From the sequence record PP449093.1: a stretch of DNA of 64,000 nt, one strand, 5' to 3'. This DNA is from Escherichia coli phage phiS. Of this stretch, positions 1 to 3,309 are shown piece by piece. A model generated the notes under the pieces. It worked only from the letters and a program-made list of their open reading frames with translations. It was not told the DNA's origin and searched no databases. Numbering within the stretch: the stretch's first letter is position 1; every line of letters starts with the position of its first letter. The translations under genes and the position numbers were made by a program.

Positions 1-1
1 G

Positions 2-958
2 CGCGGCAACTGTCTTGATATGAAAGAAAAGAATCCTTTGCGATTCAATGGTTATAATGTCGGCAATATGTATGGTATGGCGTGGCGACGCAAACCGATT
101 CATCCACACGGTGAAATCAAAATTAAGCGCGTTAAGAGCAAATATACACATACATTTAAGCACCCGTGGGTAGAAGACTTTACGCCAACCAATGAAACAG
201 AAGACCGTTTATGTGCTATCTGGCGTGGTATGCGTTATGAAGAGTTTGATTGTATTCTGGTAGCAGACCACTGGAAGACTCAATCTAATTTTGTTAATGA
301 TGCATATTGCTTGTGGGGATTCCAGGAATGGGTAGATAGTGGTTATTTCGATTATCTGCTTGATAGTGATTATCTGGGCGGTGACATTTTAGCACCGGAT
401 ACCACGATCTTTGTTAGTATGGACGTAGACACATCAAGCCCTAAAGACGATGAGGAATATGTATATCGCCAGAAGATTTGGGAAGACCAGTTACAAAACG
501 TGATTGAACAAATTAAAAACAATCCAACAGATCGCCGGATCATTATTGACTCATGGAACGTACAAGGAACACATAATGCTGTATTAGGTGTATGTCATCC
601 TTTCGTGCAATTCTATGTCAATGAAGGTAAACTGTCTTGTATGTGGTTTCAGCGAAGCGTAGACAGCTTTTTGGGCTTGCCCTTTAACGTCGCCAGCTAT
701 GCGCTGTTAACTCACATCATAGCGAAAATGTGTGATCTTGAGGTAGGAGAACTGATTTTCTCTGGTGGAGATACTCACATTTACAAAAACCACTTTGATC
801 AAGTTATGGAACAGTTAAGCCGTGTTCCGTTTGATAAACCAACAATTGAGTTGCCGGAATTTAAATCTTTAGATGAGATATTGACAAAGACTCCGAAAGA
901 CTTTAAAATTCACAACTATCAAAGCCATCCAGCGATCACAGCTCAAATGGCAGTATAA
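2..958 (+). CDS. td: Thymidylate synthase, 5' end truncated by window edge; carries a ~125-aa insertion relative to E. coli ThyA/T4 Td between the GxxYGxxWR motif and the DRR motif
   Basis: Frame open from base 2; motifs NVGNMYGMAWRR, TDRRIIIDSWN, CHPFVQFYV (catalytic Cys), FLGLPFNVASYALL, GDTHIYKNH and C-terminal HPAITAQMAV match the ThyA family. Confidence 0.85.
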   Translation, partial: RGNCLDMKEKNPLRFNGYNVGNMYGMAWRRKPIHPHGEIKIKRVKSKYTHTFKHPWVEDFTPTNETEDRLCAIWRGMRYEEFDCILVADHWKTQSNFVNDAYCLWGFQEWVDSGYFDYLLDSDYLGGDILAPDTTIFVSMDVDTSSPKDDEEYVYRQKIWEDQLQNVIEQIKNNPTDRRIIIDSWNVQGTHNAVLGVCHPFVQFYVNEGKLSCMWFQRSVDSFLGLPFNVASYALLTHIIAKMCDLEVGELIFSGGDTHIYKNHFDQVMEQLSRVPFDKPTIELPEFKSLDEILTKTPKDFKIHNYQSHPAITAQMAV

Positions 959-1028
959 ACAAAGGGGGCGAAAGCCCCCCAAATATGGAGGATAAACTTG
1001 TTCCTGCTAAAATATGAAGTGAGGTAAT

Positions 1029-3272
1029 ATGATTAAAAATGTTGTTAAGTCTTCCGGTCTGACTGTTCCGTTTGAAAAAGAAAAAGTAATGAAAATTCTT
1101 GAAGCGGCAGCCGAAGGTCATAACGTTGATCCATATGAATTGTTTGATATGGTTGAACCACTTCTGACAGAAGGTATGTCTACCAATGATATCCAGAAAG
1201 TATTGATTAAGGTCGCAGCAGATAACATTACTGTAGAAACACCAGATTATCAATATGTAGCAAGTAACCTTGCAATGTTCGCGCTTCGCAAATCAGTATA
1301 CGGTCAATTCCAACCGATTGATTTTTATAGCCATATTGAGCGTAATATTGCAACCGGAAAATATGATCGCGAAATTCTGCAAAAGTATTCCCGCGAAGAA
1401 GTGGAATATCTGGAGAAATTCATCGATCATAAACTTGATTTTAAAATGACCTACGCTGGTGCGATGCAGTTAAAAGAGAAATATCTTGTTCAGGATCGCA
1501 GCACTAAGAAAATCATTGAAACACCGCAGTTTGCGTATATGCTGATCGGTATGTGCTTACATCAAGAAGAGACAGAAAATCGACTTGAACATGTGATTGA
1601 TTTTTATAATGCTGTTGCGAATAAGCAAATTTCTCTGCCTACTCCGATTATGGCGGGTGTGCGTACCCCGACACGACAATTTAGTTCGTGTGTGGTTATT
1701 GAAAGTGATGACTCATTGCAGGGCATCAACGAAACAGCAAATGCAATCATCAAGTATATTAGTAAGCGTGCTGGTATCGGTATCAATGCTGGTATGATTC
1801 GCGCGGAAGGATCTAAGATCGGGCATGGTGAAGTTCGTCATACTGGCGTTATCCCATTCTGGAAACATTTTCAGACTGCCGTTAAGTCATGCTCACAAGG
1901 CGGTATTCGTGGCGGGGCGGCGACTCTCTATTACCCAATGTGGCATTTAGAGTTTGAAAGTCTTATTGTGTTGAAGAACAACAAAGGGGTAGAAGATAAC
2001 CGCATTCGTCATCTTGATTACGGCGTACAGATTAATAACCTGATGGTAGAGCGATTCCTTAAACGGGATTACATTACTCTGTTTAGTCCAGATGTTGCAG
2101 GTGGCTTGTTGTGGGATCTGTACTTCCGAGATGAGGAAGGTTTCCGCCAGCTTTACGAAAAACTGGAAAAAGATCCGAGTGTTCGTAAAACTCGTGTTAA
2201 AGCCGAAGACCTGTTTTTAGCGGTAGCAATTGAACGTTTTAACACTGGTCGAATCTACCCAACATTCACAGACAACATGAACAATCACGGGGCGTTTATT
2301 CGTAATGTAGCACCAATTAAACAATCTAACCTGTGTTGTGAAATTGCTCTGCCAACAAAACCGATGGGTCGTGATGATTCAGAAATTAGCCTATGTACTT
2401 TGGCAGCATATGTTTTAGGTAATTTCGATATCGAAAATATGGAAGAAGTAGAACGCATTGCTATGGTTATGGTGCGTGCACTTGACAACCTGTTAGATTA
2501 TCAGGATTATCCTGTAGAACAAGCTCTGACAGCCAAAAAACGTCGCTCTCTGGGTGTTGGTGTTACTAACTTTGCATCATATCTAGCAGATAATTTCTTC
2601 ACATATGAAGACGCTAACGAGTTTACGCATAAAACGTTTGAACGCTTGCAATATGCTCTGATTAAGGCTAGTGTGCGACTGGCTAAAGAGAAGGGTGCTT
2701 GCGAACTGATGCACGAAACACGTTATGGTCGCGGTGAACTGCCTATCGACTGGTACAAAAAGACAGTAGATGAACTGGTTGATCCGGTGTATGAGATGGA
2801 TTGGGAAGAACTGCGCGAAGACCTGAAAAAATATGGCATTCGTAACAGTACACTTTCGGCGCTGATGCCGTGTGAGTCGTCTTCTCAGGTATCTAACAGC
2901 ACAAACGGTATTGAACCGCCTCGCGGGATTGTATCGGTTAAAGGATCGAAAGAAGGGCAATTTAATCAGGTTATTCCGAACGTAGAGAATAATGCTGATG
3001 TTATTGACCTGCTTTGGACACTGATCAAGAAAGGTAACAAGCCTTATCTGACACTGGCAGCGATCATGCAGAAGTTTGTAGATCAGGCGATTAGTTCCAA
3101 TACATCCTATGATCCAAGCACTTATAAGACTGGTAAAGTCGATATTGCTGATGTGTTAGATGATATGTTGTTCGCTCAACATTACGGTCTGAAAACCCTG
3201 TATTATGCGAACGTTCGCGACGGTGCAGATGGTACGGAAGACGCTAGCGAGTGCTCATCTTGCAAGCTGTAA
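1029..3272 (+). CDS. nrdA: Ribonucleotide reductase class Ia large subunit
   Basis: 747 aa; N-terminal ATP-cone-like segment, C-terminal CESSSQVSNSTNGIEPPRG active-site region; RBS GAGGTAA before ATG; position td-nrdA-nrdB as in T4. Confidence 0.95.
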   Translation: MIKNVVKSSGLTVPFEKEKVMKILEAAAEGHNVDPYELFDMVEPLLTEGMSTNDIQKVLIKVAADNITVETPDYQYVASNLAMFALRKSVYGQFQPIDFYSHIERNIATGKYDREILQKYSREEVEYLEKFIDHKLDFKMTYAGAMQLKEKYLVQDRSTKKIIETPQFAYMLIGMCLHQEETENRLEHVIDFYNAVANKQISLPTPIMAGVRTPTRQFSSCVVIESDDSLQGINETANAIIKYISKRAGIGINAGMIRAEGSKIGHGEVRHTGVIPFWKHFQTAVKSCSQGGIRGGAATLYYPMWHLEFESLIVLKNNKGVEDNRIRHLDYGVQINNLMVERFLKRDYITLFSPDVAGGLLWDLYFRDEEGFRQLYEKLEKDPSVRKTRVKAEDLFLAVAIERFNTGRIYPTFTDNMNNHGAFIRNVAPIKQSNLCCEIALPTKPMGRDDSEISLCTLAAYVLGNFDIENMEEVERIAMVMVRALDNLLDYQDYPVEQALTAKKRRSLGVGVTNFASYLADNFFTYEDANEFTHKTFERLQYALIKASVRLAKEKGACELMHETRYGRGELPIDWYKKTVDELVDPVYEMDWEELREDLKKYGIRNSTLSALMPCESSSQVSNSTNGIEPPRGIVSVKGSKEGQFNQVIPNVENNADVIDLLWTLIKKGNKPYLTLAAIMQKFVDQAISSNTSYDPSTYKTGKVDIADVLDDMLFAQHYGLKTLYYANVRDGADGTEDASECSSCKL

Positions 3273-3280
3273 AATAAGTG

Positions 3281-3309
3281 TTGACGCGGGGAGAAATCCC
3301 CGCTATAAT
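3281..3309 (+). promoter_or_regulatory. sigma70-type early promoter with stem-loop in spacer (PeSL-like): TTGACG - 17 bp - TATAAT
   Basis: TTGACG 3281-3286, inverted repeat GCGGGGA gaaa TCCCCGC 3286-3303, TATAAT 3304-3309. Confidence 0.6.

Follow-up and report, generated by a model that had tools for sequence, protein, structure and literature searches.

An in-frame insert in the thymidylate synthase of Krischvirus phages as the probable relic of a homing-endonuclease-like module

The td gene of Escherichia coli phage phiS lies at the start of the stretch of DNA analysed here (the window, 64,000 nucleotides of record PP449093.1) and encodes a thymidylate synthase (TS, ThyA) with a long in-frame insert. 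This locus raises the question of where such an insert comes from, whether it is removed before the mature enzyme forms and whether it has a role of its own. At full length, the Td protein has 406 aa in G2248, the closest phage, and 410 aa in RB49. The parts of the gene within the window are as follows:

2-958, plus strand: td (thymidylate synthase) reading frame; the window starts inside td and the stop codon is at 956-958.
2-88, plus strand: stretch of td core directly preceding the insert, cut by the edge of the window and encoding residues 89-117 of the 406-aa Td (translation and ThyA alignment).
62-88, plus strand: GNMYGMAWR motif, the end of the upstream td core.
89-484, plus strand: in-frame insert of 132 codons, RKPIHPHG...YVYRQKIWE (ThyA alignment, hhalign, HMM, AlphaFold and dN/dS).
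485-958, plus strand: remainder of td, the C-terminal core, beginning with DQLQNV and including the stop codon (Pfam PF00303, TIGR03284 and invariant alignment columns).

The borders of the insert were set by alignment with E. coli ThyA and 18 other ThyAs. It corresponds to residues 118-249 of the 406-aa Td and is bounded by two invariant pairs, the W-R that ends GNMYGMAWR and the D-Q that opens DQLQNV, an interval of 132 residues here as against ten in E. coli ThyA (AWPTPDGRHI) and five in T4 Td (DFGGV), with a loop of about 12 residues at this site in the Td of RB16. The net gain in the Krischvirus Td is approximately 122 residues. All 132 codons of the insert are open, while stops (3-18 per frame) interrupt each of the five remaining frames. 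A sequence-only reading of this DNA had described an in-frame insertion of about 125 aa that stays open in frame, and both points hold; the coordinates it gave, 119-493, denote the same object with a start 30 nt too late and an end 9 nt inside the DQL motif.

The enzyme around the insert is readily recognised. The window fragment alone matches PF00303 with E=2.7e-58 (197.6 bits, cut-off 24.3) and TIGR03284 with 199.5 bits (cut-off 108.35). The catalytic and substrate-binding residues are all present in DRRIIIDSWN, GVCH, QRSVD, PFNVASY and GDTHIY, at invariant or nearly invariant columns of the ThyA alignment; those checked were the Cys of (P/V)CH, the Arg pair of RR..SWN, RS.D, the dUMP-selecting Asn of FN.ASY and the His and Tyr of GD.H.Y. 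Judged by these residues, the Krischvirus Td is an ordinary dTMP synthase with an intact active site and is apparently active.

The insert is fixed within Krischvirus, being present in all 58 genomes of this genus that were found with 89-97% amino-acid identity. This presence, together with the open frame, excludes both a chance ORF and an artefact of assembly. Its length is stable in these genomes and in the relatives P0003-P0006, which are 40-55% identical. The dN/dS of the insert ranges from 0.07 to 0.55 and is mostly 0.15-0.3 (about 0.2), while that of the Td core is 0.01-0.06 in most pairs (about 0.02) and 0.11-0.17 in pairs with JSE, so that constraint on the insert is roughly tenfold weaker than on the enzyme core. 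Indels among strains keep the frame (SEYN), and the substitution pattern clearly points to an insert that is translated and under purifying selection at the protein level. Another 44 records, from outside Krischvirus, had seemed to match the region; the shared sequence amounts to no more than 32 nt around the td stop codon and terminator and does not include the insert. The GC content of the insert (41.4%) equals that of the genome, making composition uninformative on recent acquisition.

AlphaFold models of the whole Td (410-aa RB49-type protein; pLDDT 93.8, pTM 0.92) and of the insert alone (pLDDT 91.5) predict with confidence that the insert folds as a domain of its own, separate from the enzyme core and held on a two-stranded stalk. 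The sequence-only reading had proposed structure prediction as a check for a separate domain, and the models agree with it. The following parts were distinguished:

89-127, plus strand: N-terminal arm of the beta-hairpin stalk (RKPIHPHGEIKIK), which in the AlphaFold model raises the inserted domain off the enzyme; it carries the shared consensus RKPxxPHGxxxIKR.
194-334, plus strand: predicted helical core of the module (EDRLCAIWRGMRY ... HWKTQSNFVNDAYCLWGFQEWVD), from the insert-only model and family invariants.
353-418, plus strand: putative beta-hairpin relic, YLLDSD ... LAPDTTIFVS, strands 88-91 and 106-109 of the insert-only model.
419-457, plus strand: acidic loop (MDVDTSSPKDDEE), ThyA alignment columns 370-445, where long ThyA inserts have a further C-terminal segment.
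458-484, plus strand: C-terminal stalk arm YVYRQKIWE, leading back into the enzyme core (strand 245-254 of the full-length model).

In the stalk, strand 118-130 lies beside strand 245-254, and in the model it leaves and re-enters the enzyme at the loop of the TS 'small domain' that is known to vary. The RKPxxPHGxxxIKR consensus is common to insert-bearing ThyAs, among which a YV.RPKIW motif is also conserved. The helical core consists of helices 35-53, 59-71 and 77-82 of the insert-only model, and the acidic loop is the part of the models with the lowest confidence. No solved structure related to the insert or its family was found either by sequence (two profiles searched against the PDB gave only chance-level matches) or by Foldseek; phage proteins annotated as 'homing endonuclease' or NUMOD are among the structural neighbours.

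The origin of the domain is indicated by profile comparisons. Long inserts at the same ThyA site match phrog_2081, phrog_953 and phrog_374 ('HNH endonuclease') with E=1e-33 to 1e-9. When a profile of short inserts only was compared by hhalign with one of free-standing proteins only, the two sharing no sequences, the match had 97.7% probability (E=2.1e-12, 99 columns), and an HMM built from the free-standing proteins only matches the window Td at E=3.2e-9. An exhaustive HMM search with the insert profile retrieved 9,825 proteins, the best 148 clusters of which comprise 67 ThyAs with the module and 81 free-standing proteins. A search of a word-indexed protein database had found no match with the insert alone and six proteins with its profile, a limit of the index given the result of the exhaustive search. 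These matches show that the insert is of foreign origin and that its homologues are phage proteins that occur on their own and form a homing-endonuclease-like family. Elsewhere within the 64-kb window, no free-standing paralogue was found.

The core of this family reads W..M..RCY ... V.VC..RW..F.NF..D ... LDKD ... YS..TC.F.....N, the last part of which (LDKD...YS..TC.F.....N) is its most conserved motif. Behind the core there is often a DNA-binding tail of the NUMOD-like or AP2 type, the NUMOD1-like and AP2-like tails having been identified by eye. Such an architecture, a core with a DNA-binding tail, is that of a homing endonuclease. Searches of Pfam/NCBIfam with the short insert, the long inserts and the free-standing proteins gave no match besides TS, except for the I-HmuI NUMOD-like domain in five of the 81 free-standing proteins. 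The family does not qualify as HNH (beta-beta-alpha-metal) by this test: no Pfam HNH model matches any member. Its proteins are basic, with a median pI of 9.1 for free-standing members and values of 8.3-9.4 for long inserts. Many free-standing members contain two tandem copies of the module, an arrangement by which the family would also fit a pure DNA-binding domain; a small member is WP_086630407 of Klebsiella aerogenes, with 178 aa.

At the ThyA site, the full module (245-285 aa, basic) occurs in frame in at least 67 divergent protein clusters, in the 67 among the best 148 clusters at ThyA-HMM position 120-124 (approximately), and the inserts of different ThyAs grade in length between 127 and 285 aa. 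The sequence-only reading would have been given up had the insert proved a common feature of this TS subfamily, and common it is, with all 58 Krischvirus Td proteins carrying it and at least 67 further ThyA clusters a longer version. Its distribution is patchy among close relatives. P0015 (284-aa insert) and the insert-free P0035 have cores that are 86.6% identical and lie on syntenic contigs, and among jumbo phages the insert is present in KP13-7, UE-S1 and ph0011 and absent from Muenster and CMSTMSU. The upstream flank (window 2-88) is 59-78% identical to that of most aligned long-insert ThyAs (43-50% for P0011, P0012 and P0015) and only 33-43% identical to that of four aligned insert-free ThyAs, E. 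coli included. A neighbour-joining tree of ThyA cores showed four changes of insert state from an insert-free sample that is narrow and biased, for which reason no count of independent gains is relied upon.

A mosaic td gene was found in the RB16-like phage L015, phages of this kind being known from metagenomes only. This phage and RB16 are 85-97% identical at the nucleotide level in frd, td codons 1-60, td codons 410-524 (approximately) and nrdA, while the central 1,035 nt or so of L015, comprising the insert and its td flanks, are unrelated to RB16 and 68-79% identical to Krischvirus td, with sharp borders. This cassette swap looks like homing with co-conversion; the mosaic is proof of recombination, not of homing driven by an endonuclease. 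The pattern of a homing element, presence and absence among close relatives together with transfer of flanks, was observed for the long form and not for the Krischvirus copy.

The Krischvirus copy differs from the rest of the family in the parts that are otherwise best conserved. It keeps the family invariants W, R, W, F and D, but its helical core has RY in place of RC and VA in place of VC, and in the hairpin motif K is changed to S, YS to LA, TC to TT and N to D. The D-K-D position itself varies among Krischviruses (DSD, DNE, DCD). The defining D-K-D, Y-S, C and N and the N-terminal beta part of the family are not found in it, the first 50 or so family columns being absent, and it lacks the C-terminal segment (DNA-binding tail) of long ThyA inserts. 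It is furthermore acidic, with a net charge of -12 and a pI of 4.7. By these changes the Krischvirus insert is probably a shrunken and inactive relic of the module.

The reading that we prefer, at a probability of roughly 0.6, is that the insert is a decayed homing-endonuclease-like module which is now most likely a passenger in an otherwise ordinary Td. Its ancestor would have been a module of about 250-285 residues belonging to a large uncharacterised family of phage proteins, for which we infer an endonuclease activity. The complete module may have entered phage thyA/td genes in frame at one site and would then have spread among them by recombination in which the td flanks moved with it, in the manner of homing with co-conversion. 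In the Krischvirus lineage it would have been cut down, losing the N-terminal beta module and the C-terminal segment, and also three conserved Cys, the lysine of D-K-D, the conserved Asn and its positive charge, all of which it would need for acting on DNA. What is left may be carried as a passenger without a present function, kept because Td can fold only if the insert does so too and because clean deletions seldom arise.

Of the other explanations, removal of the segment before the mature enzyme forms, by way of an unusual in-frame self-splicing intron or an atypical intein, has precedents in the group I introns of T4 td and other phage TS genes and in the inteins that are frequent in phage genes (PMC2988022, PMC5050341), and the frame is open throughout, as with inteins. 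Rfam, however, gave no match to a group I or other self-splicing intron in window 1-1100 even at E<=1. The insert begins with RKPIH and ends with KIWE, followed by DQ, and so does not have the Cys/Ser/Thr ... His-Asn termini of an intein, as had been noticed from the sequence before; neither short nor long inserts have a Pfam match of any kind, be it to a Hint or intein domain or to another. The substitution pattern across the insert is protein-coding, the insert is homologous to ordinary proteins, and the model shows it packed as a domain that continues the TS fold. Nothing in the sequence indicates RNA or protein splicing at the insert, and we consider its removal extremely improbable. An endonuclease hidden out of frame was not found either, as the other frames of 89-484 are closed and the longest alternative overlapping ORF has 57 aa. 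A home-grown expansion of the native small-domain loop, with no foreign origin, is hardly more credible, even though the site is a known length-variable region of TS: the enzyme of Lactobacillus casei (316 aa) has 52 extra residues relative to that of E. coli (264 aa) before the shared DQ motif, and loops of 5-33 residues occupy the site in insert-free phage ThyAs. It is already contradicted by the significant profile-profile homology to free-standing phage proteins other than TS, and other ThyAs have the module at this very site in intermediate and in full length. The earlier view of the insert as an expanded domain rather than an intron or intein is accordingly upheld as regards a protein domain (no Rfam or Hint match, selection at the protein level, predicted fold) and has to be abandoned as regards expansion of a native loop.

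Two further explanations assign the insert a present activity. That it still binds or cuts DNA, making Td bifunctional, would agree with the retention of the overall fold of the module core and with purifying selection, but the YS pair is lost, as are the K, C and N that are invariant in the family and the flanking modules, the domain is strongly acidic and its motif position differs among strains; we regard this as very improbable. Co-option of the reduced domain, whether to dock Td in the T4-type dNTP-synthesising complex, to use its acidic surface for binding another protein of the phage or the host or to regulate the enzyme, is unlikely on balance and yet deserves more weight. The stable length and purifying selection in Krischvirus and P0003-P0006 could equally mean that a new function was acquired: dN/dS is well under 1, length and hydrophobic core are conserved across both groups, the fold is compact and confidently predicted on a conserved stalk, and the charge has shifted markedly from basic to acidic. 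Against this, most of the conserved positions hold aromatic or aliphatic side chains that are buried (W, F, L, Y), a pattern that selection for folding would produce by itself, constraint is some ten times weaker than on the enzyme core, and T4 and RB16 manage with their short loops in the same gene context.

Selfish endonuclease genes in essential genes are thought to survive only inside introns or inteins that splice out. The sole exception to this rule that was found is an insertion known as ShiLan, and a third and more general route is suggested by the ThyA inserts: an element lodged in a surface loop that tolerates it simply remains part of the finished protein. We tentatively propose, at somewhat less than even odds, that they constitute an undescribed class of mobile element: a homing-endonuclease-like protein lodged in frame in an enzyme surface loop, remaining as an unspliced internal domain and spreading itself with td flanks. 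The Krischvirus insert would be its first recognised 'fossil' in model phages (RB49, Phi1, JSE). Full-text literature searching returned no title or abstract describing this insert or an endonuclease-like domain within ThyA, and the RB49-related papers that were consulted make no mention of it. Shortened forms such as that of Krischvirus amount to a natural dissection, marking the limits to which such a passenger may be trimmed. The insert also explains why the Td of the RB49 group is 120 residues longer than that of T4, and the mosaic gene documents recombination within td between different T4-like genera. A thymidylate synthase site that accepts up to 285 extra residues may be of use in protein engineering. 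Finally, attention is drawn to approximately 10,000 uncharacterised phage proteins which, from the profile search, appear to share an invariant D-K-D/N motif.

Among known systems, the nearest relatives of the insert are the free-standing proteins of PHROG families 2081, 953, 374, 3377 and 8790 (labelled 'HNH endonuclease' or 'restriction endonuclease'), which are homologous to it over the module core. They are basic, have the N-terminal beta module and often NUMOD/AP2 tails, and keep D-K-D, YS, C and N, whereas the Krischvirus insert is without all of these. Within TS itself, the small-domain insert of approximately 50 residues in the L. casei enzyme occupies the same permissive region (YG.QWR to DQ), and likewise is translated and stays in the mature enzyme. 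It is much shorter, however, and the structure of the L. casei enzyme (e.g. 1lca) was not among the fold matches of the Krischvirus insert. To our knowledge, the L. casei insert has no relationship to any other protein family.

The group I intron of T4 td, which encodes I-TevI, is found in the same host gene; comparable cases are I-BmoI in Bacillus thyA and the thy intron of phage beta22. The T4 intron belongs to a related phage group with the same frd-td-nrdA neighbourhood and is a mobile element with a site-specific endonuclease that targets TS genes. It differs in being removed at the RNA level and in encoding a GIY-YIG enzyme, and the window has no ribozyme match in Rfam. The sequence-only reading had placed the T4 intron near the insert, which is true only loosely: the intron follows VFLG and precedes LPFN, equivalent to window 676/677, 192 nt downstream of the insert.

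The ShiLan domain interrupts a mycobacteriophage DNA methylase in frame, does not splice and conceals an HNH endonuclease (PMC11855218). Like the ThyA insert, it lies in frame in a phage enzyme gene, has no intron or intein features, appears mobile and is predicted to loop out (PMC11855218). The ShiLan endonuclease is encoded in a different frame (PMC11855218), whereas the ThyA module is the inserted domain itself, in the frame of the enzyme and with the other frames closed. Mini-inteins, which have lost their homing endonuclease, and the 'homing cycle' of invasion, fixation and decay offer a further parallel, as they too involve an in-frame foreign element at one conserved site in a phage nucleotide-metabolism gene, patchy among close relatives, present in full and shortened forms (127-285 aa here) and with co-travelling host flanks. 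Unlike inteins, the ThyA insert has no Hint domain or splice-junction residues and stays in the mature protein, where it would be tolerated by virtue of its location in a surface loop rather than by removing itself.

Over its first 3.3 kb the window matches, at 97-98% identity, the td-nrdA region of the Krischviruses, a group of T4-like coliphages that includes RB49, Phi1, JSE and G2248. The complete genomes of this group have the usual gene order frd-td-nrdA and encode a full-length Td of 406 aa (G2248 and Phi1) or 410 aa (RB49); in the same gene context elsewhere, Td is 286 aa in T4 and 284 aa in RB16. Loop length was taken as the number of residues between the invariant W-R (GNMYGMAWR) and the invariant D-Q (DQLQNV) across 20 aligned ThyA proteins.

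Features of the td locus (window positions) and W-R to D-Q loop lengths
nt 2 to stop codon 956-958: td, partial, as the window starts inside the gene
89-484: insert, Td residues 118-249; loop of 132 residues
1029-3272: nrdA, downstream of td
E. coli ThyA: loop of 10 residues
T4 Td: loop of 5 residues
Insert-free phage ThyAs: loops of 5-33 residues

The large in-frame insertion in Td proposed by the sequence-only reading is confirmed by this alignment (132 residues against 10 in E. coli ThyA). Sequence and frame analysis likewise agree with its description as open in frame and lacking intein termini, the other five frames having 3-18 stops each. The insert was found in 58 Krischvirus genomes at 89-97% amino-acid identity and is fixed within the group. 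Its GC content is that of the genome, and the remainder of Td is a normal thymidylate synthase with all catalytic motifs intact. The T4 td intron site (after VFLG|LPFN) falls at the equivalent of window 676/677, which is 192 nt past the insert.

The same reading had taken the segment to be an expanded protein domain rather than an intron or intein. The distinction from introns and inteins holds: no ribozyme was detected by Rfam, even at E≤1, and there was no Hint match. Among nine Krischvirus td genes, which differ in length only by a four-codon indel, pairwise dN/dS is 0.07-0.55 for the insert (mostly 0.15-0.3) and 0.01-0.06 for the enzyme core in most pairs (0.11-0.17 where JSE is one partner), so the insert is under protein-level constraint, approximately ten times looser than that on the enzyme. 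AlphaFold models of the full 410-aa protein (pLDDT 93.8, pTM 0.92) and of the insert alone (pLDDT 91.5) show a stalk of two long strands (118-130 and 245-254) bearing a small domain made up of helices and a beta-hairpin. The word "expanded" does not hold, as the insert is a foreign module; its homology to free-standing proteins that are not ThyAs argues against a grown native loop.

The closest relatives of the whole Td include ThyAs of 441-559 aa with extra residues at the same site, which align with the centre of the Krischvirus insert. Pfam gave no match for the long inserts (245-284 aa), but PHROG families 2081, 953, 374, 3377 and 8790, which bear the label "HNH endonuclease" or "restriction endonuclease", were hit at E down to 1e-33. 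When the insert alignment was used as query in an exhaustive HMM search, 9,825 proteins were returned at E≤1e-3. Among the 148 best clusters, 67 belong to the ThyA family, with the module placed at about position 120-124 of the ThyA HMM, and 81 are free-standing proteins of 170-724 aa. The consensus of the latter is G..KD...P.V.GVGY.G ... Y..W..M..RCY ... V.V..RW..F.NF..D...L.GY..WL ... LDKD ... YS..TC.F.....N, with W, R, W, D, D-K-D, Y, C and N invariant. Two tests are free of circularity: an HMM of free-standing proteins only matched the window Td at E=3.2e-9, and hhalign gave 97.7% probability (E=2.1e-12, 99 columns) between the seven short inserts and a set of 26 small free-standing proteins. 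The insert is a translated, folded domain of foreign origin in the small-domain loop of thymidylate synthase, homologous to a large homing-endonuclease-like phage family and to full-length in-frame copies of the module in many ThyAs.

Some module-bearing ThyAs (P0138, P0143, P0227, P0231, P0257 and P0258) have a second insertion further downstream, at about position 173 of the ThyA HMM, which places it in the C-terminal core near the catalytic Cys or beyond it. In P0138, P0143 and P0227 this insertion amounts to roughly 35-70 extra residues after the QFYV-type strand.

The family is uncharacterised, its database names being "hypothetical protein". It has no NCBIfam matches and no solved structural relative by sequence or by Foldseek; in a comparison with predicted viral structures, its nearest neighbours were another ThyA bearing an insert, phage proteins that are themselves uncharacterised, an I-HmuI NUMOD-like protein and a "homing endonuclease" of a Bacillus phage. 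An I-HmuI NUMOD-like Pfam domain occurs in five of the 81 free-standing proteins, and several members, as judged by eye, have terminal NUMOD1-type (…GW.F) or AP2-type DNA-binding tails. The family is basic, the median pI being 9.1 among free-standing proteins and 8.3-9.4 among long ThyA inserts, and many larger members have two tandem modules. The conserved D-K-D / YS..C.F / N pattern maps to the predicted hairpin in a layout that appears to resemble the HNH beta-beta-alpha motif with Lys in place of His; no HNH profile matched in support. The parent module probably cuts DNA and homes. Free-standing members (among the ~9,800 hits) also occur in bacterial chromosomes, presumably in prophages. 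P0170, one of the free-standing proteins of alignments A4 and A6, shares a 90%-identity cluster with Klebsiella aerogenes WP_086630407.

Several comparisons give evidence that the long form is mobile. The core of P0015, in which a 284-aa insert replaces the native 28-residue loop, is 86.6% identical to insert-free P0035 and at most 63.6% to any other carrier; the phage contigs that encode them are syntenic (DUF2201 ... DHFR-ThyA ... epimerase). In L015, a metagenomic RB16-like phage whose Td is protein P0009, nucleotide identity to RB16 (L013) is 85-97% across frd, nrdA and two parts of td (codons 1-60 and about 410-524). The central stretch of ~1,035 nt (L015 3190-4217, also in L014), a 744-nt insert encoding 248 aa plus about 290 nt of td flanks, is only about 50% identical and substitutes for about 315 nt of RB16 sequence, with sharp borders: identity drops from 92% to about 50% at the first and rises from 50% to 97% at the second. 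The imported flanks are 68-79% identical to Krischvirus td in nucleotide sequence. In protein sequence, Krischvirus and P0007/P0009 are 76-78% identical over the 54 residues that precede the insert, against only 43-46% over the N-terminal 63 residues. At least 80% of a long-insert ThyA was covered in only 65 of 2,308 ThyA-encoding phage records, all of them from Krischviruses or from four jumbo phages. No insert is present in Muenster and CMSTMSU, which are related jumbo phages. Judged from sequence comparison, this pattern of presence, absence and cassette exchange is what homing with co-conversion would yield; it proves recombination, though not endonuclease action.

Variation was also observed in and around td itself. 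A 32-nt stretch (window 947-978, …GCAGTATAAACAAAGGGGGCGAAAGCCCCCC) comprising the last td codons, stop codon and terminator hairpin is 100% identical in 44 Pseudotevenvirus-type genomes, including RB16, Cronobacter phage GAP161, Citrobacter phage Margaery and Enterobacter and Klebsiella phages, whose Td is otherwise only about 43% identical to that of the window. Within Krischvirus, td is a mosaic in JSE, GEC-3S, KFS-EC and LF73P4 (protein type P0002): identity is 98-100% in the N-terminal part, whereas the part that follows the insert (window 485-958 against L006 (JSE) 650-1873) is about 82% identical in protein (dS 0.4-0.75), implying recombination with a breakpoint close to the insert. The spacer between td and nrdA also differs from one Krischvirus to another (window 959-1028 against L003 and L004 1883-2232), Ec_Makalu_003 and SSG23 having an extra 100-aa ORF (nrdA.1-like) that the window lacks. 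In vB_EcoM_011D4, window 1-3300 is matched in two pieces over about 4.1 kb, where DNA methylase genes are annotated. Upstream of frd, RB49 (L001 1-1441) carries the hypothetical gene RB49ORF239c (>480 aa), with a weak DUF723 match (PMC1524935), and at the same place G2248 (L002 40-1436) has a small ORF and a gene for a putative ssDNA-binding protein, making this another variable spot.

The Krischvirus copy is a reduced one. It aligns to family columns 52-167 only, without the N-terminal beta module and C-terminal segment of long inserts, and has lost family hallmark residues.

Invariant positions of the family and their state in the Krischvirus insert
RC: RY
VC: VA
D-K-D: D-S-D (DNE or DCD in other strains)
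YS: LA
TC: TT
N: D

The buried W, F, L and Y are retained, and the insert has a net charge of -12 and a pI of 4.7. Insert length in ThyAs varies between 127 and 285 aa, with intermediate forms of 163-228 aa, and this series suggests stepwise reduction of the module. The relic probably does nothing any more beyond folding. The main rival reading is co-option, with the relic perhaps serving a new role such as that of a docking surface; purifying selection is consistent with both readings.

Literature searches found no paper on the Td insert or on an endonuclease-like domain inside ThyA. In the thymidylate synthase of L. casei, the small domain has an insert of about 50 residues in this region, and residue offsets in that enzyme agree with its presence there. 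Among published cases, the nearest counterpart to a mobile insertion that lies in frame within a phage enzyme and does not splice is the ShiLan domain, although its HNH is read in another frame (PMC11855218). The stepwise reduction suggested for the ThyA inserts may be likened to that of mini-inteins.
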